NCBI GenBank assembly: GCA_964457755.1
Contig: CAYWGC010000002.1
Coordinates: forward strand, 80,621 to 144,620
Source of the DNA: an uncultured Thermodesulfobacteriota bacterium
GTDB lineage: Bacteria > Desulfobacterota > Anaeroferrophillalia > Anaeroferrophillales > Tharpellaceae
DNA: 64,000 bases
Direction of reading: 5' to 3'
Part shown: piece after piece, positions 3,371 to 59,860 of the stretch
How positions within the stretch are numbered: the first letter of the stretch is position 1
How the letters are laid out: each line of letters opens with the position of its first letter
Notes under the pieces: generated by a model
The model's input: the letters and a program-made list of their open reading frames with translations, nothing else
Told to the model about the DNA's origin: nothing
The model's database searches: none
Program-made: the position numbers and the translations under genes

Positions 3371-4759
3371 TCATGAAAAGAGTGCTTCAGCCAGTTCCTG
3401 CAAGGTGGAAATCTCTTTTAATCCCTGATTTCCACTTGTTTGTGATGAGAGGTTGCCTTGCGGGACAATGATCTTTTTGAAGCCGAATTTCAAAGCTTCA
3501 CTTAAGCGCTGATCGATCATATTTACGCGTCTGATCTCTCCAGTCAGCCCGACCTCTCCGATAACTAAGGTTGTTGCCGGTATCACCTGATCCAGGTGGC
3601 TGGAAAGAATTGCGGCGATCAGGGCCAGGTCGATGGCTGGTTCGACTACCTTTAAACCACCGACAATATTAAGAAATATATCTTTATTACTGAAATTAAG
3701 GCGCAGGCGTTTCTCCATAATGGCAATCATCAGGGCCGCCCGGTTGCGGTCAATGCCGAGGGTTGTGCGCCGCGGTATACCACCGGAGACGGCAGTGCTG
3801 ACCAAGGCTTGGATCTCGGTCAAAATTGGTCTGGAACCTTCAATTGTGGCACTGACCAGGGAGCCTGCCAGGTTTTGCGGACGCTCATTCAGGAAAATGC
3901 TGGAGGGGCTCTCAACTCCAACAAGACCGCTGCCGGTCATCTCAAAAACACCAATCTCATTGGTTGAACCAAAGCGATTTTTGACGGCTCTGAGAATGCG
4001 GAAAGGGTATTGGGTGTCAGATTCAAAATAGAGAACCGTATCGACCATATGTTCAAGCAGTTTGGGGCCGGCGATAGCACCATCTTTGGTGACGTGGCCA
4101 ATTATAAAGATCGGCGTATTGGTTAGTTTGGCAATCTTGACCAGGTGGGCGGCGGTTTGCCTGATCTGGCTGGTAGTGCCGGGGGGGGATTTTATCTCCG
4201 GGCTGTGGCAGGTCTGGATTGAGTCTATAACCAGGGTTTTCGGTTTGAGTTGCCGAAAATTTTTGATGATCTCTTCAATGCCTGAGGCTGCCAGGAAATA
4301 GAGATGTTCGTTATTGATGCCCATACGTCGGCTGCGCATCTTGCTTTGCCCCGGAGACTCTTCGCCGGAAACATAGAGGGTGATATGCTGGGGAATGCTT
4401 AAGCGGTCGAGGATCTGGAGAAGCAGTGTAGATTTGCCAATCCCCGGATCACCACCTACCAGTACGACTGAGCCTTTGACCAGGCCACCTCCTAAAACCC
4501 GATCAAATTCACTGATACCAGTAGCCTGGCGAGGTTGTTCACTCTCATTAATGTTACTAATCGGAATTGGTACTGCAATATCTCCGAGTTCGCTGATGGC
4601 CGCTATCATCTGCGGGGTTTCATGATCACTTGCGGTTTCAGGAGGGGCCTCCCGCATTGTCTCCCACTCATTACAGCCTGGACATTTACCCAGCCATTTA
4701 GCGCTCTGGTAGCCGCATGAAGTGCAGAAAAAGGAGGTCTTATTTTTTTTGGCAACCAT
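3371..4759 (-). CDS. radA: DNA repair protein RadA/Sms
   Basis: N-terminal C4 zinc finger (CTSCGYQSAKWLGKCPGCNEW), RecA-like Walker A (GGDPGIGKSTLLLQ), C-terminal Lon-protease-like domain. Confidence 0.95.
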   Translation of the reverse strand: MVAKKNKTSFFCTSCGYQSAKWLGKCPGCNEWETMREAPPETASDHETPQMIAAISELGDIAVPIPISNINESEQPRQATGISEFDRVLGGGLVKGSVVLVGGDPGIGKSTLLLQILDRLSIPQHITLYVSGEESPGQSKMRSRRMGINNEHLYFLAASGIEEIIKNFRQLKPKTLVIDSIQTCHSPEIKSPPGTTSQIRQTAAHLVKIAKLTNTPIFIIGHVTKDGAIAGPKLLEHMVDTVLYFESDTQYPFRILRAVKNRFGSTNEIGVFEMTGSGLVGVESPSSIFLNERPQNLAGSLVSATIEGSRPILTEIQALVSTAVSGGIPRRTTLGIDRNRAALMIAIMEKRLRLNFSNKDIFLNIVGGLKVVEPAIDLALIAAILSSHLDQVIPATTLVIGEVGLTGEIRRVNMIDQRLSEALKFGFKKIIVPQGNLSSQTSGNQGLKEISTLQELAEALFS

Positions 4760-4776
4760 GTGTCAGTTCTCAGTCT

Positions 4777-4833
4777 TCAGTCGCCAGTCGTCAGTCACCT
4801 AGTGTCAGGGTTTGCTGACGACTGGCGACTGAC
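4777..4833. other. Inverted-repeat hairpin (~16-bp arms AGTCGCCAGTCGTCAG / CTGACGACTGGCGACT) in the rodA-radA intergenic spacer
   Basis: Direct reading of complementary arms at 4779-4794 and 4815-4830. A T-run follows on the + strand only, so its function as a terminator is uncertain. Confidence 0.45.
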
Positions 4834-4840
4834 AACTGTT

Positions 4841-6037
4841 TTAAGCCTTGCGGCGGTAATGGATATTTAAAAGGATGCTGATCAAGACCAGTGAAGTAAG
4901 CATCGAAGTGCCGCCATAACTAAAGAGAGGCAGGGGGATACCGACTACCGGCATAAGTCCTAAAACCATACCAATGTTGATGGTGACTTGCCAGAAAAAA
5001 ATGGCCGCGATGCCGCTTGCAAGATAGCTTCCAAAGCTGTCTTTTGCTTCCATAGCAATATTTAAAGCCCGGAAAAGAAAGGTGAAATAGAGTGCTAAAA
5101 GGACCATCGTTCCTAAAAATCCCCATTGCTCAGCGTAGGTGGCAAAAATAAAATCAGTATGTTGTTCAGGTAAAAAATGCAGGGTGTTTTGCGTTCCTTT
5201 GAGAAAGCCTTTGCCGAAGAGTTTGCCGGCCCCGATGGCAATTTTCGACTGCGCAATATGGTAGCCGGAGCCTAAAGGGTCGTTTTCAGGGTTGATAAAA
5301 GTTAAAACTCGTTGCTGCTGGTAATCGTGCATGAAGTGCCAGCCCGCAAAAGCGGTTGTCAGGGCGCTTAGTGCAATTGTTATAATTGTTCCTCTGGTAA
5401 TTCCGGCAATGAAAATAACGACCCCTGAAATCAAAATAATAAGTAGGGCTGTACCGAGGTCGGGCTGTTTGAGGATCAGGATAGTCGGTAAGGCGACAAT
5501 GATGGCCGGGGTCAATAACTCTTTCAAGTTGTAGGGTGGGGGCAGACGTCGATCGCTTAAGTAGCGGGCCAGGGCGAGGATGACAGAGAGTTTGGCAAAT
5601 TCCGAAGGTTGCACATTCATGCCGCCAATCGAGAGCCAGCGAGTAGCTCCCATATGGTTACTGCCGGCTATCTCGACTGCCAATAACAGCGCTAAACCGA
5701 GTCCGTAGAGAGGGTAGGCCGCTTGGTAGAGGTAGTTGTAATGGAATATAAAGAGCCCACTGCCAACAACCATGGCGATACCGAACCAGGTAGTTTGCCG
5801 GCGGCAGTAAGCTGTCAGCCAGCCTCCGGCATCGGGGTTGTAGGTGGCGCTGTAGATAGTGACGATTCCTAAAAAAACTAGAGTCAATGTCAATCCCAGG
5901 GTCAGATAATCAAAATCATATAGACGTTTACGTTCAAGGGGTTGTTCTGTCAGGCGATTCTTGGGCCAAGGGGTGTACTGCTCTGATTTGGCATCAATAA
6001 GGTGGGTACGTTGTGGGGTTTGTTTGGATAGGTTCAT
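4841..6037 (-). CDS. rodA: Rod shape-determining protein RodA (SEDS peptidoglycan glycosyltransferase)
   Basis: Polytopic membrane protein with FtsW/RodA motifs (…LPEQHTDFIFA…, GGTSM…). It lies immediately downstream of PBP2 in the mre operon. Confidence 0.9.
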   Translation of the reverse strand: MNLSKQTPQRTHLIDAKSEQYTPWPKNRLTEQPLERKRLYDFDYLTLGLTLTLVFLGIVTIYSATYNPDAGGWLTAYCRRQTTWFGIAMVVGSGLFIFHYNYLYQAAYPLYGLGLALLLAVEIAGSNHMGATRWLSIGGMNVQPSEFAKLSVILALARYLSDRRLPPPYNLKELLTPAIIVALPTILILKQPDLGTALLIILISGVVIFIAGITRGTIITIALSALTTAFAGWHFMHDYQQQRVLTFINPENDPLGSGYHIAQSKIAIGAGKLFGKGFLKGTQNTLHFLPEQHTDFIFATYAEQWGFLGTMVLLALYFTFLFRALNIAMEAKDSFGSYLASGIAAIFFWQVTINIGMVLGLMPVVGIPLPLFSYGGTSMLTSLVLISILLNIHYRRKA

Positions 6038-6090
6038 AAGAGATTCTCAAGGATGAAGGATGAATAAAAAAACATGATGAAATATTTGTC

Positions 6091-7986
6091 TTAACCTTCA
6101 TCCTTTGATAAACGTTTTGTGCCTTGGGTAGTGGGCAAAGCCCACTTTAGTTTGTCAAGATAAAACTCTATTGCTTGTCGGGCAATTGGCGCAGCTGTTG
6201 AACCGCCATGACCACCATGTTCAATTAGAACTGCAATAGCAATCTCAGGGTCGCTGTAAGGGGCAAAAGCGGCAAACCAGGCGTGGTCACGAAAACGCCA
6301 AGGGATCTCTTTAGACCCTTTTAAATCCTCAAGGGTCTGTTTGACAACCTGGGCGGTACCGGTTTTTCCAGCCATCTCCCACCCTTCGGTGGTGATCCGC
6401 GATTTAAAAGCAGTTCCACGTTTGTCATTAACCACTTGCCAGAGAGCTTTACGTATGGCCTGCATATGGGGATCGCTTATTTCGACCCGGGTGCCATCGT
6501 TTTTTGTAGAGGTTTTATGGCGCTTGTCTGAAGTTGGTTGAGCGTTCTTATCTTTAACCAGGTGCGGTTTGTAGTAGATGCCTCCATTGGCGAATACTGT
6601 ATACATGGCGGCGATCTGTAGCGGGGTAGTTGTCAGATAACCCTGGCCGATGCAAACTGAAATTGTATCGCCTGTATACCATTGATCATGAACGTTTTTC
6701 AACTTCCATGACGAACTTGGTAAAAGTCCGCTTTTCTCTTCCTGAAGTTCGATGCCGCTGAGATGACCGAGACCGAAGTTGGACCCGTAGGCAGCAATTC
6801 GATCGATCGGAATTCTGGTTGCGAGATTATAATAATAGACGTCACAGGACTCTTTCAGTGAACGGTAGAGATCGACATGGCCGTGACCATAGCGGTTCCA
6901 GCAGCGAAAATTGCTGCGGCCCAGAGTCATGGAACCGTTACAGGAAAATGATGTTTGCGGGGTTATCACCTGATCAGTAAGGGCGACAGCAGCGATCAAT
7001 GGTTTGATCGTGGAGCCGGGGGGATAACGTCCCTGGATTGGGCGATTTTGTAGAGGGTGCAGGGGGTCGCTGTTGATTGTTTGCCAATCTTTAGTGGAGA
7101 TTCGTGTCGCAAAAAGATTGTTGGAGAATGACGGAGTGCTGACCAGGGCCAGAATCTCACCGTTTTTAGGATTAATGGCAACTACGCTTCCGACTTCTGC
7201 ACCCAGCAGATCGAAAGCATGTTGTTGGAGGTCGATATCTATGGTCAATTCCAGGTTTTTTCCAGATTGGGCCGGTATTGTGGTGTAGGAGGATAGTTCC
7301 CGGCCGCGAGCGTTGACTTCGACTTGGCGTTGGCCGTCCTGACCGCGTAAATATTCCTGGTAACCTGCTTCGATGCCGGAGCGCCCGACAAGATCGTCCC
7401 GGGCATAACTTTTATAAGCCTGTAACCCCAGTTCTCGATCATTGATAAATCCCAGATAACCAATAACATGCGAGCATATTTCATCGTACGGATACTCCCG
7501 TATGGGCTCAGTTTCGATGAGAATGCCCGGTAGTTCAAATTTTCGGGATTCGACTCGGGCCAGCTCATTGGGACAGAGATTTTTTTTTAAGGTGATTGGC
7601 CGATGACGGGCACTGCGGGGAGTTTTATTGTATAGAGTTACAATTGTTTCAGTTTTGAGATCATCGATTTGGGTGGCCAGAAGTTCAGCGACATTTTCAA
7701 TTTCATCAATATTCTCAGGGATTAGCTGCAGGTTGAAAGCCAGAGAATTGTCGGCTAGGATTTCCCGGTTTCGATCTGTGATAATGCCTCTTAAAGCCCG
7801 GATTCGTCTGGTTCTTATACGGTTATCTTGTGATTTTTGATTATAATACTCGCCTTGAACTATTTGGATGTACCAAAGCCGGAGAGTTAGGCAAGAGACT
7901 ATTATTGCCATAGCGATCATGATTATGCGTCCATTGACGGCAATCTGTTCGCGTTTATTTTTTTTACTGTTATCTACATTAGCCAT
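6091..7986 (-). CDS. mrdA: Penicillin-binding protein 2 (peptidoglycan D,D-transpeptidase MrdA)
   Basis: N-terminal membrane anchor, PBP dimerisation domain, transpeptidase STIK (…PGSTIKP…), SxN and KTG(T) motifs (…AGKTGTAQ…). Synteny mreBCD-mrdA-rodA. Confidence 0.9.
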   Translation of the reverse strand: MANVDNSKKNKREQIAVNGRIIMIAMAIIVSCLTLRLWYIQIVQGEYYNQKSQDNRIRTRRIRALRGIITDRNREILADNSLAFNLQLIPENIDEIENVAELLATQIDDLKTETIVTLYNKTPRSARHRPITLKKNLCPNELARVESRKFELPGILIETEPIREYPYDEICSHVIGYLGFINDRELGLQAYKSYARDDLVGRSGIEAGYQEYLRGQDGQRQVEVNARGRELSSYTTIPAQSGKNLELTIDIDLQQHAFDLLGAEVGSVVAINPKNGEILALVSTPSFSNNLFATRISTKDWQTINSDPLHPLQNRPIQGRYPPGSTIKPLIAAVALTDQVITPQTSFSCNGSMTLGRSNFRCWNRYGHGHVDLYRSLKESCDVYYYNLATRIPIDRIAAYGSNFGLGHLSGIELQEEKSGLLPSSSWKLKNVHDQWYTGDTISVCIGQGYLTTTPLQIAAMYTVFANGGIYYKPHLVKDKNAQPTSDKRHKTSTKNDGTRVEISDPHMQAIRKALWQVVNDKRGTAFKSRITTEGWEMAGKTGTAQVVKQTLEDLKGSKEIPWRFRDHAWFAAFAPYSDPEIAIAVLIEHGGHGGSTAAPIARQAIEFYLDKLKWALPTTQGTKRLSKDEG

Positions 7987-8524: not shown

Positions 8525-9358
8525 TTAGGACGTTTTCCGTGAAGGTATTATATAAACCTCTTCAATAGTGTTGAGATCGAATGTTGGTTTTACTTTGATC
8601 TGTTGGCTGAGGCCGTTAGGGTCTTGTTCAGTTTTAACGACAGTACCGACCGTTATGCCTTTGGGGAACATGTTATCAAGGCCTGAGGTGATCAGCGTGT
8701 CGCCGACTTTGACATCGGCGGTACGCTGGAGATGGGCCAGTTCGCAGAGGTCGCTGCCTGTGCCTTGCAGGGTTCCACGAATACGGTTTCTTTGAATTAT
8801 AACGTCGCAAGCGCTATTTTGATCAACGAGTAGGAGGACTTTGGCAGATTGTGGTCCGCAGGCGATGATGCGGCCGATAACTCCGCCTGGTGTAAATACT
8901 GGGTTATTGATTTTGAGACCTTGACGGGATCCACAATCAATTATAAAAATTTGTGAGAGGCTATCAGTTTGCCGGCCAATAATGTGAGCTGCCAGACCTT
9001 GCTCCAGGGTGTCGTGCTGTTTTTTGAAGTTAAGCAGCTGATGCAGACGCTGGTTTTCGATACGAGCTTCTTCAAATTGGGCCAGGCGATGTTTCATGAG
9101 ATCAAGATCTTTTTTTAATTTGGCATTGTTCTTTTTGGTGCCGACCAGGCTGATGTAGTTGTCAAAAATGTTACTACTGGTAGCAAAGGTCCAGTTAATA
9201 GACTTTTGGATAGGGTAGGTCATCGTCAAAGCTGCACGTTCAGCAATGCTGATAAGGCTACCTCCTTTTTGCAGGCCAAAGCTTACACAGAGGGTGGAAA
9301 AAATAAAAATTAATACCAAGCTTAAGAACCAGGGTAGGCGGTGGCTTAACGTGGTCAT
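8525..9358 (-). CDS. mreC: Rod shape-determining protein MreC
   Basis: N-terminal membrane anchor, coiled-coil region, C-terminal beta domains typical of MreC. Position after mreB. Confidence 0.85.
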   Translation of the reverse strand: MTTLSHRLPWFLSLVLIFIFSTLCVSFGLQKGGSLISIAERAALTMTYPIQKSINWTFATSSNIFDNYISLVGTKKNNAKLKKDLDLMKHRLAQFEEARIENQRLHQLLNFKKQHDTLEQGLAAHIIGRQTDSLSQIFIIDCGSRQGLKINNPVFTPGGVIGRIIACGPQSAKVLLLVDQNSACDVIIQRNRIRGTLQGTGSDLCELAHLQRTADVKVGDTLITSGLDNMFPKGITVGTVVKTEQDPNGLSQQIKVKPTFDLNTIEEVYIIPSRKTS

Positions 9359-10899: not shown

Positions 10900-12306
10900 A
10901 TGAATTCATTAAAGCTTCCAGACGAGTTTTGGCTGGAAGATAGTGGCCAGAGTGATGATTACGATGAGACTCGGCATATCTACAGTGTCTCCCAGCTTAA
11001 CGGTGATATCCGTCTGGTTATCGAGGATAACTTCACCCCGGTCTGGGTCGAGGGTGAGATCTCAAGCCTTCGCACCCCGGCTTCAGGACATGTCTATTTT
11101 ACCCTCAAGGATGATCGCTCTCAGCTGAAAGCGGTATTCTTTCGGCGTCAACAAAGGACTTTGCCATACCAGCCGCAAGAGGGAGATCGGGTTTTGTGCA
11201 ATGGGCGTATCAGCCTTTATGAGCCCCGGGGAGAATATCAGATAATTGTCTCCACTATAGAGCTCCAGGGTATGGGTGGTTTGTGGCGAGCCTTTACTCA
11301 ACTTAAAGAAAAATTGATGCGTGAAGGATTGTTCGATACGGATCGAAAAAAAAAGATTCCCTTGTTACCTCGTACTTTGGCTCTGATAACTTCGGCCACA
11401 GGGGCTGCAGTTCACGATATCCTGCAGGTGATCCGCCGCCGTTTTGCCGGGGTTGAAATTATGGTTGTGCCGGTAATGGTTCAAGGTGAACGGGCGGCTA
11501 CTGAAATTGTGGCGGCTTTGGATCTCGTCAGCCACTACTGGCGAGATCGTATAGATACGGTTATTCTGACTCGAGGTGGTGGTTCTTATGAAGATCTGCA
11601 GCCTTTTAATGATGAACGGGTGGCCCGAGCGATTGCGGCCTGTGCAATCCCCTTGATCAGTGCCGTAGGCCATGAGATTGATTTTACAATTGCCGATTTC
11701 GTGGCTGATCTCAGGGCACCGACCCCTTCAGCTGCGGCTGAGTTAGTGATTGCCAACCAGAGTGAAATGGTTGATCGTCTGCACCATCTCAGGCAGCGTC
11801 TTCAGCAGATCGGGCGTTATCGGATAACTCAGGAACGCCGCCGGCTGCAGATGTTGGGCTTGGCTCTGGATCGGGGGAGCGAGGCCGTTTTGCTTCGCCG
11901 TCAGGACTTTATAGAGTTGAAAATCCGTTTTCGGACGGCAATGCTCTCGCGTTTGCGCTTGGTTCGGGAAAATTTAAAAATTCATGAACTTCGTCTCGGT
12001 CAGGTGTCACCGCTGGTTCGTATAAAGCCACTTGCTTATGAAATAAACTCGCAGGAGCAGCGATTTGGTCAGGCAATACGACATCTTTTGGCTGGCAAAA
12101 GACAGTCAATTACAGCTCAGAGTGATCGACTAAAAGCCGCTAGTCCTTTGGCAGTTTTAGCTCGGGGCTATACAGTTGTTGAAAAAGTCGATAATCATCA
12201 GGTGGTCAGCAAAAGTGATGATCTCGTTGTGGGGGAGCAACTGCGCCTCCGCCTGCATCAGGGTGGGGCCGTGTGTAGGGTTGAGGCAGTGATGAATGAT
12301 GAATGA
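10900..12306 (+). CDS. xseA: Exodeoxyribonuclease VII large subunit
   Basis: OB-fold N-terminus (…VWVEGEISSLR…ASGHVYFTLKD…) followed by the ExoVII catalytic region; 468 aa. Confidence 0.93.
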   Translation: MNSLKLPDEFWLEDSGQSDDYDETRHIYSVSQLNGDIRLVIEDNFTPVWVEGEISSLRTPASGHVYFTLKDDRSQLKAVFFRRQQRTLPYQPQEGDRVLCNGRISLYEPRGEYQIIVSTIELQGMGGLWRAFTQLKEKLMREGLFDTDRKKKIPLLPRTLALITSATGAAVHDILQVIRRRFAGVEIMVVPVMVQGERAATEIVAALDLVSHYWRDRIDTVILTRGGGSYEDLQPFNDERVARAIAACAIPLISAVGHEIDFTIADFVADLRAPTPSAAAELVIANQSEMVDRLHHLRQRLQQIGRYRITQERRRLQMLGLALDRGSEAVLLRRQDFIELKIRFRTAMLSRLRLVRENLKIHELRLGQVSPLVRIKPLAYEINSQEQRFGQAIRHLLAGKRQSITAQSDRLKAASPLAVLARGYTVVEKVDNHQVVSKSDDLVVGEQLRLRLHQGGAVCRVEAVMNDE

Positions 12307-51152: not shown

Positions 51153-52196
51153 ATGAGCAAAAATCAGAGAGTAGTCTTAGGTTTTAGTGGCGGGGTTGAT
51201 AGTGCAGCGGCCGCTATTTTACTGCAGCGCCAAGGATACCAAGTAGTTCCGGTCGTCCTTGATATGGGTGGGGCAGATACTTCATTTCTGTTGCAGAGGG
51301 CTGCAAAGATGGCAAAGCATCTTGGGTTAGATTTGCTGGTTGAGTCGGCAGCCGATACTTTTGCCCAGGAAGTGATTGAATATCTGCTTTTTGCCTATAC
51401 TCATGCGCAAACCCCGAATCCCTGTATTCGCTGTAATGCTCGGGTTAAATTTGCCCGGTTGGCGGCGGTGGCCGACCGTCTAGGAATTGAAAAAATGGCT
51501 ACCGGGCACTATTTTAAAAAACTTTCCGGAGTTTCAGACAGCCCGGAAATTTCCTACCATAAAGCTTATGACAAGCGTAAAAATCAGAGTTATTTTCTCT
51601 TTGCAGTGCCGGAATTGTTATTGCGGCGCACTCTTTTTCCATTGGGTGGAATGAGTAAGAGTGAGGCCCTGATTTTGGCAGATGCAGCGGGTTATGAACT
51701 TGATAATTATCGTGAGAGCCAGGAGCTCTGTTTTCTCAACGGCGAAAAATATCAAGAGTATCTGGCCCGGCGGGGAGTGATGGGTGGTCACGGTGAGATT
51801 GTCAATTGTCAGGGGCGTGTAATGGGTAAGCATAACGGTCTGCAAAACTACACGATTGGCCAACGCCGCGGTATGGGGATTGCGCATCCTGAACCCCTCT
51901 ATGTTCTGAAACTTGATTATCCACATAACCGTTTACTGGTTGGTGAGCGGGATGAGGCCTATGGTTGCAATCTAAAAGTGGATAAAATCAACTGGCTGAT
52001 TGAACCACCATCTCAACCTCTTAATATTGAGTGCCAAATTCGTTATCGCCACCAACCAGCCCCGGCTCTTCTGACTCCGCTTTCCGATGGCCGGTTCGAG
52101 ATTGAATTCGAGTCTCCTCAGTTTGCCATAACTCCGGGCCAAGGAGCTGCTTTTTATAATGGAGAGCAGCTGTTAGGCGGTGGTATTATCATATGA
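51153..52196 (+). CDS. mnmA: tRNA-specific 2-thiouridylase
   Basis: PP-loop SGGxDS (…GFSGGVDSAAAA…), catalytic Cys residues, C-terminal beta-barrel. Confidence 0.93.
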   Translation: MSKNQRVVLGFSGGVDSAAAAILLQRQGYQVVPVVLDMGGADTSFLLQRAAKMAKHLGLDLLVESAADTFAQEVIEYLLFAYTHAQTPNPCIRCNARVKFARLAAVADRLGIEKMATGHYFKKLSGVSDSPEISYHKAYDKRKNQSYFLFAVPELLLRRTLFPLGGMSKSEALILADAAGYELDNYRESQELCFLNGEKYQEYLARRGVMGGHGEIVNCQGRVMGKHNGLQNYTIGQRRGMGIAHPEPLYVLKLDYPHNRLLVGERDEAYGCNLKVDKINWLIEPPSQPLNIECQIRYRHQPAPALLTPLSDGRFEIEFESPQFAITPGQGAAFYNGEQLLGGGIII

Positions 52197-52219
52197 GTCG
52201 TGATTATATGGAGGTTGAG

Positions 52220-54340
52220 ATGAAGAAAATAATCACTTCGGTTTTATGGATCATAATTACTCTCCTTTGTTATAGTGAAGCCAACGCTTTCATCGTTGAT
52301 CATCAATGTACGGATAGTAGCAAAATTCCTGTTGCATGGTTGCAGGCAGCCAGAAACAATCTGCGCATGGGCTATTCTCATACATCTCATGGCAGTCAGT
52401 TGATCAGCGGCATAAACGCATTTCGTGGTAGTGAAGGTTCGAGATATTATTTCACCAGTTCCGGTTGGGGGGCCGTAAGCGGAGTTTTTATAAATGATTA
52501 CTGGGCGAATGATGGGGCCGGAGACCTTGGTCATAATGGTGACTTGAGTTGGGTGACTGCAACTGAAACCATGCTTGATAATCCTGCCAATGACCGGAAT
52601 GTGGTGATGTGGTCATGGTGTGGCGGCGTTAGCGATAACACTGCAAGCGGTATCGATATATACTTAAATGCCATGAACCGCCTTGAACAACTCTATCCTC
52701 AGGTTTCTTTCATCTACATGACCGGTCATCTGGATGGCGGTGGAGTGGTGGGTAATTTGCATCAGATGAATGAGCGCATTCGCAATTACTGCCAAGATCA
52801 CAATAAGATACTTTTTGATTTTGCCGACATTGAAAGTTATGATCCCGATGGTGCAATCAACTATATGCAACTTAATGCCAATGATAATTGTGATTATAAC
52901 AGTAATGGCAACAATCGAAATTGGGCCCGTGAATGGCTTTCTGCTAATCCGGCCAGCACCTTGGCAGTGGAGGCCGAGAGTTGTGGGGGCTGCGCTCATT
53001 CACAATATTTAAACTGCGTTCTTAAAGGCCGGGCCTTTTGGTGGATGATGGCCCGTATTGCCGGTTGGGAGCCTGGCATTCCAGATCCTCCGGTTACGCT
53101 CTCAAAACTCTATTACCCGCATGTGGTCAGTGGGGATGGAGTTTGGGGAACCGAGATATGCGTACTCAATCCCAATAGTAATCAGACAGTTAATGGGATT
53201 TTTAAGGCCTTCGCTAATGACGGCCGAGCGGTTTCTGACAATCTAATTTTAAGCCTTGCTCCGCAGGCTCGTCGAGTAATAAACATCGCCACGCAATTTA
53301 GAGACCCTCAAAGTATTGGCTATATTGTTCTAGAAAGTGATTCCGAGAATCTTACCGGATATATGAAATTTTTTATCAACGGAGTCTGTCGGGTTGCCAT
53401 ACCCGTGGTCTCTCAGCTTAATTCAGGAGCTGTACCAATCTCTCATATTGCTTCAGATCAGTACTGGTGGACCGGTATAAGTTTGCTTAATACGACACTA
53501 TCGGAAAAAATATTGTCCATATATTTCAATAATGGAGTGCTGAAAAACGTAACACTCAGTGCTGGAGAACATCGGGCTTTTTCGATAAAAAGTCTGTTTG
53601 ATAACACTCCTCAAGCAGATATCAATTCTGCGATAATAGAGGGCATGACCGGAGTCATTGGTTTGGAACTTTTCAGCAATTCTAACCAGTTAAGCGGCAT
53701 ATTGTTAAGTGATAAGAGCTCTACTGAAATCTGTTACCCTCATGTCGTCGATGACCTGCAGTGGTGGACGGGGATTGTGGCATACAATCCATTTGATATG
53801 GAATCTATTTTGACAATTTCACCCTTTACTGGAGACGGTTCACCATTACCGCTTAAGACGGCAACACTTTTACCATTTTCAAAGTACTGGGGGTCTGTGA
53901 GTTCGCTTGCTTTAGCGTCGGAAACTGCCTGGTTTAAGGTTGAAAGCACCACTGGGATTTCCGGCTTTGAGCTTTTTGGCAGCAATGATAGTCAGCGTCT
54001 GGCCGGCTACTCCGGGGTTGCGATCAGTGGAACTGACGGCGTTTTGGCTAATCTTGAAGAAGATGGTTGGTCAGGTATCGCATTGGTCAATATCAGAGCA
54101 ACCTCGGTAACCGTTCAACTTAAAGCATATGATGATTCTGGCGCTCTTATTGCGACTAAATCAATAGATCTCAAAGCTTACGAGAAAAAAGTGGAAGTTG
54201 CCTCCACATTTTTCAGCACCAGTATCGCCGGCGCCACTTACATTACCTACACCGTGGAAGGTGATGGTGAATTGGTTGCTTTCCAGCTCAACAATAGCAG
54301 TGACAACACCATGCTTGATGCCTTACCAGCTATCAGATAG
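52220..54340 (+). CDS. Large secreted hypothetical protein: ~240-aa N-terminal domain of unknown function followed by several ~100-aa repeats with the conserved motif …[YN]PH[VI]…W(W)TG[IV]…N…
   Basis: Signal peptide (MKKIITSVLWIIITLLCYSEANA) after a GGAGG RBS. Internal repeats seen directly (YPHVVSGDGVWGTEICVLNP… / YPHVVDDLQWWTGIVAYNP… / YWWTGISLLN…). It is paralogous to the ORF at 59135. Confidence 0.5.
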   Translation: MKKIITSVLWIIITLLCYSEANAFIVDHQCTDSSKIPVAWLQAARNNLRMGYSHTSHGSQLISGINAFRGSEGSRYYFTSSGWGAVSGVFINDYWANDGAGDLGHNGDLSWVTATETMLDNPANDRNVVMWSWCGGVSDNTASGIDIYLNAMNRLEQLYPQVSFIYMTGHLDGGGVVGNLHQMNERIRNYCQDHNKILFDFADIESYDPDGAINYMQLNANDNCDYNSNGNNRNWAREWLSANPASTLAVEAESCGGCAHSQYLNCVLKGRAFWWMMARIAGWEPGIPDPPVTLSKLYYPHVVSGDGVWGTEICVLNPNSNQTVNGIFKAFANDGRAVSDNLILSLAPQARRVINIATQFRDPQSIGYIVLESDSENLTGYMKFFINGVCRVAIPVVSQLNSGAVPISHIASDQYWWTGISLLNTTLSEKILSIYFNNGVLKNVTLSAGEHRAFSIKSLFDNTPQADINSAIIEGMTGVIGLELFSNSNQLSGILLSDKSSTEICYPHVVDDLQWWTGIVAYNPFDMESILTISPFTGDGSPLPLKTATLLPFSKYWGSVSSLALASETAWFKVESTTGISGFELFGSNDSQRLAGYSGVAISGTDGVLANLEEDGWSGIALVNIRATSVTVQLKAYDDSGALIATKSIDLKAYEKKVEVASTFFSTSIAGATYITYTVEGDGELVAFQLNNSSDNTMLDALPAIR

Positions 54341-54493
54341 TGCTATGAGAAAACCCACACAAGGGAATTTGCTTAATTGTTTAATTTACTGGGTGCAATA
54401 AAAAATAATTAAAAAGAATATTTTCATTGCTTTAGAATGTTAAAAGAATTTATATGAATATAAATGAATAACAGATGGCGGGGAGGTTTCCAG

Positions 54494-54754
54494 ATGTCAA
54501 AAGTAGTGACCCTTAGACTTTCAGATGAAGAATATAATCTCTATGCAAAAGCCGCTAAAGTTGTCAAACGGCCGATATCCAACCTGATTAACTACCTGGC
54601 ACAACAACAGCTTGAAGAGAGTATTTTTATTGACCAGATAGAGATGGATGAGATTATTGGGAACCCAACTTTGCTTGAATCCCTGAAACAGGGTTCCATC
54701 GATGCAGAACTCAATCAAGGATCGTTTGTTGATGTATATGATATTCGAGACTAA
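54494..54754 (+). CDS. Type II antitoxin (ribbon-helix-helix/RelB-DinJ-like)
   Basis: 86-aa protein, N-terminal …VVTLRLSDEEYNLYAKAAK… RHH-like. Its stop overlaps the downstream RelE/ParE-like toxin. GGGGAGG RBS. Confidence 0.6.
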   Translation: MSKVVTLRLSDEEYNLYAKAAKVVKRPISNLINYLAQQQLEESIFIDQIEMDEIIGNPTLLESLKQGSIDAELNQGSFVDVYDIRD

Positions 54755-55004
54755 AACTTTTTTGAAGTCGCTTGAGCAAGTTTTTGGTGGACAACAGGGA
54801 AAAATTAAAAAGAAACTCCGGGGATATGTTTACCAGCAACTAAAAATCTCACCGGCGTTTGGCTCTAATATTAAAAAGCTCCGAGATTGGGATCCTCCCA
54901 CTTGGAGATACAGAATAAGCTCTTACCGATTCTTTTATCAAATTGATGAAAATCAGAAAATTGTCTCTATGATCCTGGCTGAACATCGTGGTAAGGCTTA
55001 TTAA
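54732..55004 (+). CDS. RelE/ParE-family type II toxin (mRNA interferase-like)
   Basis: ~90 aa; C-terminal …YRISSYRFFYQIDENQKIVSMILAEHRGKAY is typical of RelE/ParE. Its start overlaps the antitoxin's last codons. Confidence 0.7.
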   Translation: MYMIFETKTFLKSLEQVFGGQQGKIKKKLRGYVYQQLKISPAFGSNIKKLRDWDPPTWRYRISSYRFFYQIDENQKIVSMILAEHRGKAY

Positions 55005-55069: not shown

Positions 55070-55231
55070 ATGACTAATGGTAAAAACAACGGAGCGAACC
55101 TTGGCTTCGAAAACAAATTATGGGGAATGACCGACAAAATACGCGGTCATATGGACGCTGACGAATTGCGTGTTCTCAGTGTTGAGAAGTTGGTTGACGG
55201 ATTAAACCTTAATGGGGTTCACAATGGCTAG
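55070..55231 (+). pseudogene. hsdM: 5' remnant of a type I restriction-modification methyltransferase gene (hsdM N-terminal ~30 codons, then divergent sequence and a stop)
   Basis: MTNGKNNGANLGFENKLWGMTDKIRGHMDA… matches the widely conserved HsdM N-terminus (…LGFE.KLW.AADKLRG.MDA.EYK…). Homology is lost after ~aa 30, and the ORF stops at codon 54, overlapping the ATPase start. Confidence 0.6.
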
Positions 55232-56219
55232 AGCTGACTTGCTAACCGCTCTCGTCAAATTTGGAATGGCTGACGACAAGATCCGGTTCCAAAAAGTTGT
55301 CGAGTCGATCATCGCAGAAGAGCGAGCGAAGAAACACACAGTGTTGGCCGAGAAGCTGGAAGATCTGTTGCGCTCGATTCCTGTAGCGAAACCAGTTTCT
55401 AACGGAACCGCCATATTGGATCATCGGGTCAGTAATTTCGTCCGAGAAGTGATACCAGAGCGGAAACTCGACGATCTTATATTGCCATCGGAAGTACTTG
55501 AGATAGTGCGGGAAGTTGTTCAAGAGTACCATCGAATTGACCTGCTTCGATCATACAATTTGGAACCTCGCAATCGAGTACTGCTCATCGGTCCACCAGG
55601 AAACGGTAAGACGTCTCTGGCTGAAGCCATTGCTGAATCGTTGATGGTACCGTTACTTGTCGTTCGGTACGATGGTGTGGTGGGCACCTACCTTGGTGAA
55701 ACTGCCGTTCGTTTGCGAAGGTTGATGGAATATGCCGCCACACGGAAATGTGTTCTGTTCCTTGATGAGTTTGAGACGTTAGGCAAGGAGCGGGGCGACA
55801 CTCACGAAACCGGGGAAATAAAACGAGTCGTCAGTTCCTTGCTTCTACAGATTGACTCGCTGCCCAGCCACGTGGTCGTGGTTGGAGCCACCAATCACGC
55901 AGAGCTTCTCGACCGGGCTGTCTGGCGACGGTTTCAAGTTCGTATGGTTTTGCCCGAACCGACTCGTGCGAGACTGGCCGATTGGTTTGCAAGGTTTGAA
56001 CGTAGGATCAATGTGCCACTGGGATATGCACCAGAGACATTAGCGAAGAAGCTCCAAGGTGTGAATTTTGCCGAAGCTGAGGAATTCGGGGCGAGTGTGT
56101 TTCGCAAGTACGTACTCGAACAACCTGATTCAGACATGAAATCGATTGTTAATCGTACGTTGAAGACCTGGTCAGCACGTTCGGCCAAAACGAAACAGCA
56201 AAACGGGGGCAAAGACTAA
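55212..56219 (+). CDS. Classical AAA-family ATPase (single AAA domain, short N-terminal helical region); first gene of a two-gene ATPase-peptidase operon
   Basis: Walker A LLIGPPGNGKTSLAEAIA, Walker B VLFLDEFETL, sensor-1 …VVVGATNHAELLD…, Arg-finger region …AVWRRFQ…. Alternative start at ATG 55224. Its stop overlaps the next gene's start (TAATG). Confidence 0.85.
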   Translation: MGFTMARADLLTALVKFGMADDKIRFQKVVESIIAEERAKKHTVLAEKLEDLLRSIPVAKPVSNGTAILDHRVSNFVREVIPERKLDDLILPSEVLEIVREVVQEYHRIDLLRSYNLEPRNRVLLIGPPGNGKTSLAEAIAESLMVPLLVVRYDGVVGTYLGETAVRLRRLMEYAATRKCVLFLDEFETLGKERGDTHETGEIKRVVSSLLLQIDSLPSHVVVVGATNHAELLDRAVWRRFQVRMVLPEPTRARLADWFARFERRINVPLGYAPETLAKKLQGVNFAEAEEFGASVFRKYVLEQPDSDMKSIVNRTLKTWSARSAKTKQQNGGKD

Positions 56220-58798
56220 TGCCGGTTCGACCATTATTGCTATTTCCCGCTCCCGAACTTGCAGAAAAGGGTAATTTGCCCCAAGGTTTTAGACGGACTC
56301 ATAAACCTTCGCATGGCAGGCAAGGAGAGAGGGTGTCTCCCATCTTCGCTCAACTTCAGGCGGCATTCGATGCGCGGCAAGTCGAACTACAGAAAACGGC
56401 TGCCGGTGTAGAGCCAGAACAGGTTTTGGTGATTGAAACCATCGGTAACATCGAGGATTTTGCCAATGCTGTTCGTCGGATTGAAGGGCTTGAATGGATG
56501 GGGGAAATTGAAGTTGAGGAGATTACACCGGATGAGGATTTCTATGACGAGAAAAAACCGGAAAAAGAATTAAGTGGTCGTCTCTATCTGGTCATGACAA
56601 ATCAGCAGGCATTGCGAGAACTGCTTTCATTGTGGAATCGCTATAAAAATGATGAGAACATGACCTTTGATCGTGGCTTTGCCAAGTTTCGCGACGTGTT
56701 TCTCTGCCTTAATGATATTCGGCGTTGGGATGTGCAAGACCGCCTCGCTGAAACCGGTGTGTTGGATGTTTGGCGTGAGGATATGGAGCATTTTCCCGAT
56801 CAGCCGGTTCGAGGTGAAATCGAACTGTGGTTTCGCAATTCTGAAAGCAAGCGGCAAGACGCGGAGCTTCAGCTCACTTTATTGATTGAGGTGCTTGGTG
56901 GAAGAGTTTTGAGCCAATGTGTTCTTAGCGATATTGCCTATCACTCGATCTTGGCCGAATTGCCGAGGCAAGTTGCACAACAGGTGATGGATCACTCGAG
57001 TGTAGAGTTGGTCAAATGCGACAGCGTCATGTTCTTCAGGCCAGTAGGCCAAATGGCGACGGGCAAGTCACCGGTTGAAGGTGACCTGACGGATTTTGAA
57101 GTTTCTGAGGATCAAGAACGGCCATCCGGTGATCCGGTTGTTGCTATTTTTGACGGGCTTCCTTTGACCAATCACAGGTTGTTAGCAGATCGTTTAGTAA
57201 TCGATGATCCAGACGATTTCGCCTCGTATTACACTGTGGCCGATCGTGTGCATGGGACTGCAATGAGTTCGCTTGTCGTTCAAGGTGATTTAAGCAACGG
57301 GGAAAACCCGTTGGCTCGGCCTGTCTATGTTCGCCCGATCATGAAACCCATCGATTGGCATCGGTCTCCTCGTCCCGAGTATATCCCAGCAGATGTGCTT
57401 GTTGTTGATCTTATTCACCGCGCGGTTCGTCGCATGTACGAGGGTGATGGTGCGGGTGATGCGGCGGCGCCTGGCATTCGAATCATCAACCTGTCGATAG
57501 GCGACTCGAGCCGTCAATTTACGCAAGCCATGAGCCCCCTCGCACGACTCTTGGATTGGTTGAGTGTAAAATACAAGGTGCTCTTTGTCATCAGTGTGGG
57601 AAACTACCCTGATGACATTGACACCGGGATTTCGGTAGATGACTTTAATGATCTTGGCGATCAAGATCTCGAAGAGCTCAGTGTCAAGAAGCTATACGAG
57701 AACGCACGCCATCGGAGCCTACTCTCTCCCGCCGAGAGCATCAACGGCATCACGGTAGGTGCGCTGCACCGTGATGATTCTACTGTGAGCCATAGCGGAG
57801 ACACCATCAACCTGTTTGAAAATGCTCTTCCAAGTCCGGTGTCTGCATTTGGCAGCGGATACCGCCGCTCCGTAAAACCTGATTTAATCTGCCATGGTGG
57901 CCGAGTTTTTTACAATCGACCTATAGGCACGAATGCCAACGCCATTCTCAAATCCCGCCATCTTCGAATAGCGCCGGGCAACGAAGTTGCGTCACCGAGT
58001 AGCCATCCTGGCGACTTAAACAAGACTGCGTATTGTTGCGGAACCAGCAATTCGGCTGCGCTTATAAGTCGAGCGTTGTCTATTTGTCACGACTCGTTGT
58101 TGGATATATTCAATGAGCAAGCGCCTGACATTGAATTCACCACGTATATTGCCCCCTTGCTCAAGGCGATGATTGTACATGGATGTTCGTGGGATGATAT
58201 TGGGGAACGCCTTCAACAAATACTGCAAACTGCTGACAATGGTCGCCAAATCCGCAATTGGATAAGCAGATGGCTTGGGTATGGGGTTCCAGATTATTCG
58301 AGGGTTTTAGATTGTACGGAACAACGGACATCAATACTCGGGTTTGGGCAACTCAATGATGGAGAGGCCCATGTGTTTAGTCTGCCACTTCCGCCGTCAT
58401 TGGCCGCTCGACGTGACAGGCGTAGACTAACCGTGACATTGGCGTATTTGTCGCAAGTCGCCTCAAGCACCCAACGATATCGAATTGCCAACCTATGGTT
58501 CGAAATCGAAGGCGTTGCTTTGGCTTCCGGCAGACAAGATGCCGAGTGGCGTACAGTTAGACGTGGAACCGTTCAACATGAAGTATTTGAAGACGATAGA
58601 GCGGTCCCATTCAGCGACGGTGATACTTTGACAATTAAAGTCAACTGTCGAAAGGACGCACGTCGAATGGAAGAGCCGACTACTTATGGATTGGCAGTAT
58701 CACTCGAAGTAGCGGAGGGCATTGATATACCCATTTATAACGAGGTACGTACTCGAATAGCAACTGCTATTGAGATTCGAGCTAGAGAAGGGCTGTAG
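56219..58798 (+). CDS. Intracellular S8-family serine peptidase (subtilase) with an unrecognised ~300-aa N-terminal domain; second gene of the ATPase-peptidase operon
   Basis: Complete subtilase catalytic elements in order: Asp (…VVAIFDGLPLTNH…), His (…VHGTAMSSLVV…), oxyanion Asn (…IINLSIGDS…), Ser (…YCCGTSNSAALISRA…). No signal peptide; 859 aa. Confidence 0.85.
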   Translation: MPVRPLLLFPAPELAEKGNLPQGFRRTHKPSHGRQGERVSPIFAQLQAAFDARQVELQKTAAGVEPEQVLVIETIGNIEDFANAVRRIEGLEWMGEIEVEEITPDEDFYDEKKPEKELSGRLYLVMTNQQALRELLSLWNRYKNDENMTFDRGFAKFRDVFLCLNDIRRWDVQDRLAETGVLDVWREDMEHFPDQPVRGEIELWFRNSESKRQDAELQLTLLIEVLGGRVLSQCVLSDIAYHSILAELPRQVAQQVMDHSSVELVKCDSVMFFRPVGQMATGKSPVEGDLTDFEVSEDQERPSGDPVVAIFDGLPLTNHRLLADRLVIDDPDDFASYYTVADRVHGTAMSSLVVQGDLSNGENPLARPVYVRPIMKPIDWHRSPRPEYIPADVLVVDLIHRAVRRMYEGDGAGDAAAPGIRIINLSIGDSSRQFTQAMSPLARLLDWLSVKYKVLFVISVGNYPDDIDTGISVDDFNDLGDQDLEELSVKKLYENARHRSLLSPAESINGITVGALHRDDSTVSHSGDTINLFENALPSPVSAFGSGYRRSVKPDLICHGGRVFYNRPIGTNANAILKSRHLRIAPGNEVASPSSHPGDLNKTAYCCGTSNSAALISRALSICHDSLLDIFNEQAPDIEFTTYIAPLLKAMIVHGCSWDDIGERLQQILQTADNGRQIRNWISRWLGYGVPDYSRVLDCTEQRTSILGFGQLNDGEAHVFSLPLPPSLAARRDRRRLTVTLAYLSQVASSTQRYRIANLWFEIEGVALASGRQDAEWRTVRRGTVQHEVFEDDRAVPFSDGDTLTIKVNCRKDARRMEEPTTYGLAVSLEVAEGIDIPIYNEVRTRIATAIEIRAREGL

Positions 58799-59134
58799 AA
58801 ATGAACCATCTCAACGAAGCAAAAATATGACCATGGTGTGCTTTGAGAATTTCACTACATTGAATATGGATCGGACGTTGCTTTTGATGGCTCGAGCACA
58901 GAAAGTAATGCGGAAGCAGATTATATCGACATTGTTCTCATCGGATGCTCACCGAGAGCTCTGAACTTGTGCTCGAATAGGCGACGGTTGCTTTGTAAGG
59001 AATGTGCAGTAGAGTTAATGAAACCGCTCAACAAAGCGCTGTACTGATCGGTTGTTCCGCTACGCTCCATTGCCGTCAATGAGCCTGCTCGTTATTTACC
59101 CAACCAATGGCAAAGTTTACGCCGGATACAATAC

Positions 59135-59860
59135 ATGGGTGTTTGGGCAAATACTGGTTCTGCCCGAACTGGAACAGTGACGATAGGCGGTATTTTAAGT
59201 GATACATTTAAGGTGTCACAGGAAGCTGCACCTGGAACTTATAGCTATGAATATTTTTCACCATATTACTCTTCTTCAGAAGTTGACTGGACTGGTGTTG
59301 CCTTAAGTAATGCTAGTTATGATCATGAGGCTTCTATAGAGGTTGTAGTTCGTGGTATGAATGGAGACCTTTTAAGACAGATTTATAAAAATCTTCCAGC
59401 CAGTGGCAAAACAACTTTAGTAGTAGATGATTTAAGTTCCGGATGGTTGCATGTTAGATCAGATCAACCTTTGTCCGGCCTTGTCTTTCTAGGTCGTGGC
59501 CTGTATATGGCTGATATTCCTTTTGTTGACAATCTCGAACAAAATCTTGTTATCCCCCATATTGCTCAGGATGATGATTGGGATACGACTCTTATGATCT
59601 GTAACCCACAGACCAGCAGCGTTAATGTAAATGTAATAAATGTTAACGATCAAGGGCTAATAGTGGCTCTGAGAAACTTAACACTTGCGGCTAAAGGCAG
59701 CGGTTGTTTTCTGTTAAGTGATCTTTTTGGGTCTCAAGCTCTAACCGGTAAAATATATCTTCATGCAACTTCAGGAATATCTGCTTTTGCGCTTTATAAC
59801 AATGTGAAGAGCGGCGGCAGCTGGTTTGCCGGTATCAATGCTACACTATTAACTGATTAA
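59135..59860 (+). CDS. Repeat-domain protein fragment paralogous to the C-terminal repeats of the 52220..54340 protein; lacks a signal peptide (possibly 5'-truncated)
   Basis: …NLVIPHIAQDDDWDTTLMICNP… and …ISAFALYNN… align with …YPHVVDDLQWWTGIVAYNP… / …ISGFELFGSN… of the upstream paralogue. An in-frame stop lies at 59078. Confidence 0.45.
   Translation: MGVWANTGSARTGTVTIGGILSDTFKVSQEAAPGTYSYEYFSPYYSSSEVDWTGVALSNASYDHEASIEVVVRGMNGDLLRQIYKNLPASGKTTLVVDDLSSGWLHVRSDQPLSGLVFLGRGLYMADIPFVDNLEQNLVIPHIAQDDDWDTTLMICNPQTSSVNVNVINVNDQGLIVALRNLTLAAKGSGCFLLSDLFGSQALTGKIYLHATSGISAFALYNNVKSGGSWFAGINATLLTD

Follow-up and report, generated by a model that had tools for sequence, protein, structure and literature searches.

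The stretch of DNA considered here, called the window below, comprises 64,000 nucleotides (nt) of contig CAYWGC010000002.1 (positions 80,621 to 144,620, assembly GCA_964457755.1) from an uncultured Thermodesulfobacteriota bacterium. It contains two co-oriented genes which encode an AAA+ ATPase and an S8 family peptidase (a subtilase) and which are joined by overlapping stop and start codons. These genes are very probably ietA and ietS, that is, an IetAS system, a two-gene, toxin-antitoxin-like, abortive-infection anti-phage system, situated in a former type I restriction-modification (R-M) operon. The genes and the signal preceding them are as follows, where ORF denotes open reading frame and aa amino acids.

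55212-56219, forward strand: ietA ORF as delimited mechanically, 335 aa
55214-55217, forward strand: Shine-Dalgarno-like GGGG, 6 nt before the ATG at 55224
55224-56219, forward strand: ietA, a single-module classical AAA+ ATPase in which ~105 aa of N-terminal helical region precede the AAA+ module
56219-58798, forward strand: ietS ORF, 859 aa, its ATG overlapping the ietA stop; a cytoplasmic S8 peptidase, assigned from homologues as the toxin/effector of IetAS

The ietA–ietS pair and its products

The TAA stop codon of ietA shares its last A with the ATG of ietS within GACTAATGCCG (TAATG overlap, 56217-56221). Of 19 homologous loci, 16 retain the TAATG junction, which is thus conserved and did not arise by chance, and ietA lies directly 5' of ietS in the same orientation in all 19 loci for which upstream DNA is available. 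In addition, the identity of IetA to its window copy correlates with that of IetS (Spearman 0.88, n = 19 loci that are not phylogenetically independent). The real start of ietA is most likely the ATG at 55224 (MARADLL) and not 55212, giving a protein of 331 aa, because all relatives share ATGGCTAGA (M-A-R) with GGAG ahead of it, at the same position as the GGGG of the window, when the upstream regions of the 19 loci are aligned on the ietA start, and because the PADLOC model for IetA begins at residue 5. The ratio of nonsynonymous to synonymous substitution rates (dN/dS) against two relatives (L002 and L015; related loci are designated by L numbers where they must be told apart) is 0.10-0.12 for ietA and 0.14-0.15 for ietS, and 0.10-0.15 also in each of three regions of IetS, so the pair is maintained by purifying selection.

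Pfam AAA is the sole domain found in IetA (residues 123-248, E 2e-29). In the numbering of the 335-aa ORF, the Walker A motif GPPGNGKT occupies G127-T134 and includes K133, and the other motifs are the pore loop YLGET, Walker B LDEF, sensor-1 ATNH and RRF. In 21 homologues, among them the founder of the family encoded on pTiC58, these columns are either invariant or aromatic-conserved, with the consensus GPPGxGKT, [YF][LM]GET, DEF, ATNH and RRF. The nearest PDB sequence relatives of IetA are the D2 domains of VCP/Cdc48 (E 3e-40), a generic match to Cdc48/VCP-type AAA+ proteins only, and IetA is most like unfoldases such as Cdc48, PAN and FtsH. A crude hydropathy test (Kyte-Doolittle, 19-residue maximum 1.57) gave no signal peptide or stretch of transmembrane length.

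IetS is built of the following parts.

56219-57118, forward strand: N-terminal region, aa 1-300, in which an N-terminal peptide is followed by a long helix (aa 32-58) and by a pair of ferredoxin-like alpha/beta modules
57119-58318, forward strand: subtilase catalytic domain, aa ~301-700
57152-57154, forward strand: catalytic D312
57251-57253, forward strand: catalytic H345
57602-57604, forward strand: oxyanion N462
58046-58048, forward strand: catalytic S610
58319-58795, forward strand: C-terminal beta-sandwich, aa ~701-859, with a P-domain, PPC, GOLD or jelly-roll-like fold

Peptidase_S8 is the sole Pfam domain in IetS (residues 307-622, E 4e-13). Across 72 IetS homologues, D312, H345, G461 and S610 show no variation, and at least 90% keep N462. 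The N-terminus, MPVRPLLLFPAPELAEKGN..., has no long hydrophobic stretch and is conserved in the same 72 homologues, and neither a signal peptide nor a transmembrane segment was found in IetS by the same crude hydropathy test (19-residue maximum 1.46). No PDB sequence matched IetS at E <= 0.01. An AlphaFold2 model of the full-length protein reached a mean predicted local distance difference test score (pLDDT) of 66.6 and a predicted template modelling score (pTM) of 0.75; the N-terminal modules (aa 30-260) were modelled at pLDDT ~70-89, the subtilase core patchily and the C-terminal beta-sandwich at 70-90. With this model, Foldseek returned SubHal as the best match (E 4e-8), followed by PCSK9, Kex2 and furin, with KP-43 also among the top fold matches, all of these being subtilases which carry extra C-terminal domains.

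The N-terminal modules gave weak fold matches only, namely to ACT-like, ribosomal-S6-like and POIA1 (a subtilisin-propeptide-like inhibitor) folds. When the N-terminal 300 aa were folded alone from a 19-sequence alignment, the model was poor (pLDDT 52, pTM 0.40) and Foldseek found nothing at E < 0.01. Because the ferredoxin-like fold is a common one and the separately folded model is poor, this domain is left unassigned here; on the basis of the models, a propeptide-like role is a possibility. Among 1.84 billion representatives, phmmer found 1323 proteins that match residues 1-300, 538 of them at E <= 1e-30, and among the 150 hits listed the match begins within the first ~27 residues in all but one, the full-length proteins being ~835-925 aa long. 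The position of the match and the length of the proteins indicate that the domain is apparently specific to IetS-type proteins. Furthermore, the peptide MPxRPLLLFPxPE at IetS residues 1-14 (window 56219-56260) is nearly invariant in homologues at 59-92% identity and still recognisable in the IetS of L010 (46% identical) and L008 (54% identical), while looser Pro-rich N-termini are found in the proteins of a Rhizobium rhizogenes pTi (L001) and of pTiC58. This peptide is a candidate handle for the AAA+ partner.

A preliminary description of the locus had reported two co-oriented ORFs joined by TAATG, an ATPase with intact Walker A and B, sensor-1 and arginine finger, and an 859-aa subtilase which has a complete D-H-N-S catalytic set, no signal peptide and an N-terminal region of ~300 aa that could not be assigned. 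These observations agree with the junction conserved in the related loci, the Pfam AAA match and the alignments of 21 IetA and 72 IetS homologues, with the hydropathy and the conserved N-terminus of IetS, and with the lack of any Pfam or PDB sequence match to the N-terminal ~300 aa.

Relation to known IetAS systems

The same description had held that this two-gene architecture was an unnamed and uncharacterised one, which is wrong: in PADLOC, which it had proposed as a check, both proteins match IetAS over their full lengths, so a database match to an already characterised pair does exist. IetA matches PDLC04232 at E 2.5e-149, its residues 5-330 aligning with positions 1-326 of a 330-position model, and IetS matches PDLC04233 at E 0 and 1104 bits, its residues 1-854 aligning with positions 1-851 of 855; there are further PADLOC matches to three IetA models (E 1e-66 to 1e-87) and seven IetS models. 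The best NCBIfam matches are IteA_antiphage (anti-phage ATPase IteA) and IteS_antiphage (S8 family anti-phage peptidase IteS). Because of the full-length PADLOC matches and the homology to the founder pair described next, the window pair is assigned, at the level of sequence, to the IetAS family as a member of a diverged subfamily and not as an equivalog of the proteins behind the NCBIfam models. The preliminary description had also allowed for a match to a family that is known from prediction only; this holds for the subfamily, which is matched only by the later models of PADLOC and falls under the NCBIfam cut-offs, and does not hold for the family itself, which is characterised.

The founder pair of pTiC58 (J Bacteriol 191:4656), located at L024 27874-28860 and 28864-31374, has the same order of ATPase and then S8 peptidase and similar lengths (IetA 328 aa, in the window 331; IetS 836 aa, in the window 859). 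Its IetA is 35% identical to the window IetA over 252 aa (E 2e-44) and has the same motifs. Its IetS is only ~21% identical over the catalytic region; the homology of the peptidase and C-terminal domains is detected by hhalign (probability 96%, E 2e-9, columns 300-851 against founder residues 284-828). The founder differs in that its genes lie 3 nt apart and lack the TAATG by which the window pair overlaps, and in that it is plasmid-borne, whereas the window copy is chromosomal and lies in the remnant of an R-M operon.

According to later papers, IetAS was first described in 2009 as a plasmid-stabilising pair of pTiC58 with a serine protease toxin and an AAA-ATPase antitoxin (Yamamoto 2009, via PMC5006074 and PMC13069673), and Gao et al. 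2020 are credited with ietAS as an anti-phage system (PMC13069673; bioRxiv 2022.08.27.505566). The IetAS of Bacillus cereus m1293 acts by abortive infection and becomes toxic when yosG (YosG) of SPbeta is expressed (bioRxiv 2022.08.27.505566), and in Escherichia coli ietAS is co-localised with type III R-M and shows synergy with Zorya II (bioRxiv 2022.08.21.504612). The protease activity is required for protection, and it was not possible to clone a mutated ietA (PMC13069673). Salmonella genomic island 1 (SGI1) encodes SgiAT, a functional toxin-antitoxin pair homologous to IetAS which promotes the maintenance of SGI1 (PMC5006074), and ietHAS is an IetAS variant with an added SNF2 helicase (Liu-DS4; NAR 2026, PMC13069673).

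Among these, the ietAS of the type described in 2020 (the NCBIfam models; B. cereus m1293 and E. coli ECOR52) belongs to the same PADLOC family as the window pair, which scores under the cut-offs of those models; by analogy with such homologues, protease-dependent abortive infection is the phenotype to be expected. SgiAT resembles the window pair by its description, a subtilisin-like toxin with an AAA-ATPase antitoxin, chromosomal like the window copy and stabilising an integrated element, and differs in that it sits on an integrative mobilisable element. As for ietHAS, an SNF2 helicase lies upstream of two relatives of the pair (L013 and L021), whereas no helicase gene adjoins the window pair.

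By analogy with the published homologues, the cytoplasmic subtilase IetS would be the toxic effector and the AAA+ ATPase IetA would be needed to keep it harmless; a phage protein could release the toxicity of IetS, and the infected cell would then stop growing before phage production. IetA would probably restrain IetS by ATP-driven engagement or remodelling, as the classical pore loop (Y-L-G-E-T) and the closeness to the D2 domain of Cdc48/VCP suggest. Engagement would plausibly involve the invariant peptide at the N-terminus of IetS together with the IetS-specific N-terminal domain, and a phage trigger would disturb this restraint. The guess in the preliminary description that a cytoplasmic protease effector coupled to an NTPase serves defence by abortive infection is thus supported, from homologues and from the variable defence neighbourhoods described below.

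The classical AAA+ module with an intact aromatic pore loop, the likeness to the unfoldases named above and the translational coupling would also suit a two-component ATP-dependent protease like ClpXP, in which IetA and IetS perform housekeeping or regulatory proteolysis. Subtilases are not known to be self-compartmentalised ring proteases, which counts against such an enzyme. Moreover, homologues have a protease that is toxic by itself and an ATPase that relieves this toxicity, which is the opposite of an obligate activator (PMC5006074, PMC13069673), and the distribution of the pair is patchy, horizontally transferred and linked to defence islands. A housekeeping protease of this kind is hardly credible and is rejected on the genetics of the homologues and on this distribution.

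Several points weigh against the assignment of the window pair as an IetAS anti-phage system. The NCBIfam scores lie far under the equivalog cut-offs (221.5 against 510 bits for IteA and 76.2 against 900 bits for IteS), and the IteS_antiphage alignment covers IetS residues 163-578 only. The N-terminal ~300 aa of IetS are not aligned to pTiC58 IetS by BLASTP or hhalign, so trigger and regulation may differ from those of the founder. None of the experimentally tested systems considered (pTiC58, SgiAT of SGI1, E. coli and B. cereus) could be placed in this subfamily, and a literature search did not find a tested system from PDLC04232/PDLC04233. How IetAS works against phage is called unknown even in tested systems by a 2026 paper (PMC13069673), and the search found no paper on the molecular mechanism or structure of IetAS; that IetA remodels IetS through its N-terminus is something we infer as plausible. 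In addition, no convincing promoter was found, the counts of promoters and terminators not exceeding those in shuffled sequence.

The former R-M operon and the relatives of the pair

The preliminary description had mentioned a decayed hsdM gene next to the pair. A remnant of the methylase gene hsdM is present; it is actually part of an in-frame fusion with the end of the specificity gene hsdS, and an hsdR remnant lies downstream, as found by tblastn.

55070-55231, forward strand: hsdM'-'hsdS fusion mini-ORF, 53 aa, in frame, with hsdM codons ~1-30 and hsdS tail codons ~30-53
58859-58963, forward strand: hsdR' remnant, ~35 codons from the N-terminal part of a type I restriction subunit, with no intact ORF continuing from it

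The first ~34 residues of the fusion (window 55070-55171) share 68-75% identity with the N-terminus of HsdM in L003 and L007, and the last ~24 residues (window 55157-55228), ADELRVLSVEKLVDGLNLNGVHNG, match the HsdS C-termini of L004, L003 and L007, e.g. SGELRVPDAEELLDGLNIHGGQHG. The TAG stop of the fusion ORF (55229-55231) overlaps the ietA start in ATGGCTAG, and the stop of intact hsdS overlaps the ietA start likewise in L003, L004 and L007. The hsdR' remnant is 49% identical over 35 aa to residues 72-106 of the HsdR of L007 (E 1e-5) and matches the HsdR of L003 and L004 more weakly. No complete hsdM, hsdS or hsdR is found in the window, and in the order hsdM'-'hsdS, ietA, ietS, hsdR' only ietAS is intact. 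The pair is accordingly taken, from these alignments, as the intact survivor, or cargo, of a former hsdM-hsdS-ietA-ietS-hsdR operon whose hsd genes were lost by deletion. The deletion kept the 5' end of the operon and the translational coupling into ietA, which would keep the pair expressed.

The decay that cost the locus its R-M genes could be thought to have left the pair, too, as a non-functional relic, given that the operon around it is degraded, that the promoter search gave no strong candidate and that one homologue (L012) is clearly pseudogenised. This is very unlikely: both ORFs are of full length and have every catalytic residue, the dN/dS against two relatives is 0.10-0.15, and the deletion left the 5' end of the operon in frame with its coupling into ietA. 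A relic pseudogene pair is rejected on the intact ORFs and the dN/dS.

Relatives of the pair are numerous. In a collection of 5.8 billion proteins, IetS has 2309 matches at E <= 1e-10, the best being 92% identical. Proteins 46-89% identical to IetS are found in species-level genomes of KSB1, Chlorobium, Anaerolineales, Spirochaetaceae, Myxococcales, Planctomycetota, Paracoccaceae and Bacteroidota, and copies 60-89% identical in metagenome-assembled genomes (MAGs) of KSB1, Chlorobium, Anaerolineales, Planctomycetota and Myxococcales. By contrast, the RadA of the host (3374-4759, reverse strand) is 91-92% identical to proteins from MAGs of its own uncultured "Deltaproteobacteria" lineage only and next ~54% to those of Geobacteraceae. 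The identity of IetS across phyla, set against the drop of RadA to ~54%, indicates that the pair moves horizontally. DNA similarity to other loci begins at 55183-55224 and ends at 58758-58824, so the transferable unit is the pair with a short leader. Full-length homologues of 28-39% identity occur on 60 plasmid records, many of them rhizobial; a tblastn search with IetS against 50,697 phage genomes gave no match. The pair is, as judged from these sequence comparisons, inherited and horizontally transferred as one translationally coupled unit, which lands in defence neighbourhoods.

The neighbourhoods of the related pairs are as follows.

L003, L004, L007, L020 and L022: pair inside an hsdM-hsdS-ietAS-hsdR operon, intact in L003, L007, L020 and L022; L004 lies on a short contig with no hsdM visible
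L015 and L016, the same element: BREX beside the pair
L013 (2396-8990) and L021 (1-6912): SNF2 helicase and DUF1156 methylase (ietHAS- or DISARM-like)
L023: hsdM, Kiwa and Cas9 near the pair
L010: GmrSD near the pair
L012: Mrr beside a frameshifted ietS
L002, L017 and L018: methylases, a toxin-antitoxin pair or an IS200 transposase near the pair
L005, L006, L008 and L019: no obvious defence neighbours

The R-M operon thus accounts for five of 18 distinct related places, and in L013 the SNF2 helicase gene ends 4 nt before ietA. The neighbourhood analysis that the preliminary description had suggested therefore shows the homologous pairs to lie in variable defence neighbourhoods (R-M, BREX, DISARM-like, Kiwa, Cas9, GmrSD and Mrr). 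In a neighbour-joining tree of IetS, the R-M-embedded copies fall into three subclades interleaved with copies outside R-M operons.

Other cargo is also seen in R-M operons which carry ietAS: between hsdM/hsdS and hsdR, L022 has an 818-aa TIR protein and a Phd/PIN pair (4359-6815 and 11128-11822), and there are an NYN-domain gene in L020 (5087-5722) and a RhuM-family gene in L003 (12668-13684). The presence of unrelated cargo in the same operons suggests that these type I R-M operons serve defence genes as general landing sites.

Among relatives with an organism name, the closest is L002 (KSB1 MAG, JAJDAE010000141.1), whose IetS is 89% identical. It has at 8900-9010 a shorter hsdM'-'hsdS-like mini-ORF, MADEKNNSTNVNSENKLREMAYKLGGLINIGVQNG*, which ends in the ietA start, and an IS200-type Y1 transposase lies ~500 nt upstream. 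Taken with the window, this mini-ORF indicates that the state in which R-M is lost while the leader and ietAS are kept occurs in two phyla. An example of decay of the toxin gene is found in a Phycisphaerae MAG (L012, 10004-12570), where ietS is split into four ORFs by frameshifts and ietA is apparently intact; upstream, on the opposite strand, lies a truncated Mrr-type restriction endonuclease.

The place of the pair between hsdS and hsdR is that of a known effector. PrrC is an anticodon nuclease, an abortive-infection effector within the EcoprrI type Ic R-M locus, with prrC lying between hsdS and hsdR. The ietAS genes occupy the same position in L003, L004, L007, L020 and L022 and formerly did so in the window, although PrrC is a nuclease and IetAS a protease/ATPase pair, the proteins being unrelated. 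This position, the overlap of the hsdS stop with the ietA start (ATGGCTAG) in L003, L004 and L007, and the three subclades of R-M-embedded copies would all fit an IetAS subfamily that works as a PrrC-like guard, silenced by HsdMSR and firing once restriction has been disabled by an anti-restriction protein of a phage, with the window copy as an orphan. In that event, the window and L002 copies would be guards which have outlived what they guarded. However, many close homologues have no R-M nearby (L005, L006, L008 and L019) or sit beside other systems, unrelated cargo (NYN, TIR, Phd/PIN and RhuM) occupies the same place in the operon, as suits a general landing site, and the window and L002 copies are under purifying selection in the absence of any R-M. 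Moreover, the tested IetAS systems were cloned alone, without R-M genes (bioRxiv 2022.08.27.505566, 2022.08.21.504612). A guard is therefore improbable, and a shade less probable still is the more specific idea that the subfamily forms a second line of defence which monitors HsdMSR or its inhibition by phage anti-restriction proteins and sets the protease free once restriction fails, with the conserved hsdS-ietA coupling and the IetS-specific N-terminal domain serving the sensing.

Besides its assignment as an IetAS anti-phage system, the pair may be viewed mainly as an addiction (post-segregational killing) module, retaining itself and the neighbouring DNA, with phage defence secondary or absent in this host. 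The founder, as reported in PMC5006074, was found as a determinant of plasmid stability and incompatibility and SgiAT promotes the maintenance of SGI1, and full-length homologues are carried on the 60 plasmid records. Furthermore, the flanking R-M genes are deleted in the window and in L002 while ietAS is intact and under purifying selection, as an addictive module would produce. Addiction is nevertheless compatible with defence, the two roles not being mutually exclusive; homologues do protect from phage by abortive infection, and the neighbourhoods are dominated by anti-phage systems and not by replication or partition genes. A mainly addictive role is thus possible, yet it is clearly the less likely of the two.

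The genes and remnants described above form an islet of ~4.5 kb, and no large defence island, in an ordinary chromosome. Elsewhere the window carries housekeeping genes, as assigned by eye: the mreBCD region (mreB), PBP2, rodA, radA and xseA. No notable direct or inverted repeats flank the borders of the islet, and no tRNA gene and no Rfam family at gathering score were found in the window. The shift in composition is weak, with ~49-52% guanine + cytosine in the pair against ~38-46% in the flanks. Just upstream of the mini-ORF lies a neighbour that is not part of IetAS (54464-55004, forward strand).

54464-54754, forward strand: ribbon-helix-helix (RHH)/RelB-like antitoxin gene
54702-55004, forward strand: RelE/ParE-fold toxin gene

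The preliminary description had called this a RelE/ParE toxin-antitoxin module. The sizes of the genes and their overlapping arrangement fit, while all family scores are sub-threshold (ParE_toxin 22.7 against 23 bits, DUF6290 21.9 against 27 and RelB_antitoxin 18 against 50), so it is a probable type II toxin-antitoxin pair. It was not found in 14 related loci (L001-L014). The genes which flank the islet (52193-54340 and 59135-59860) are paralogous, sharing a repeated module of ~100 aa (28% identity over 135 aa, E 2e-6); the first encodes 715 aa and has a signal-peptide-like N-terminus, the second is an ORF of 241 aa, and neither has a Pfam match. The start of the 241-aa ORF seems to fall within a domain (ANTGSARTGTVTI, by eye like BACON), and the ORF may therefore have been truncated at its 5' end by the insertion or deletion that shaped the islet.

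Significance for the IetAS family

The IetAS family, its name and its anti-phage role are already known; what is new is a member of a diverged subfamily in the remains of an R-M operon. In annotation, the locus should read ietA/ietS flanked by pseudogene fragments of a type I R-M system, which removes a false call of a novel system. In addition, the diverged subfamily offers handles on the mechanism of IetAS, which is still open according to PMC13069673. These are its wide occurrence (~1,300 clusters at 50% identity have the N-terminal domain in common), the invariant N-terminal peptide, the IetS-specific domain of ferredoxin-like modules and the recurrence of the pair inside hsdMS-hsdR operons. 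Finally, R-M is deleted and IetAS retained in two cases, the window and L002, which hints at a pair that either is addictive or has a use of its own.

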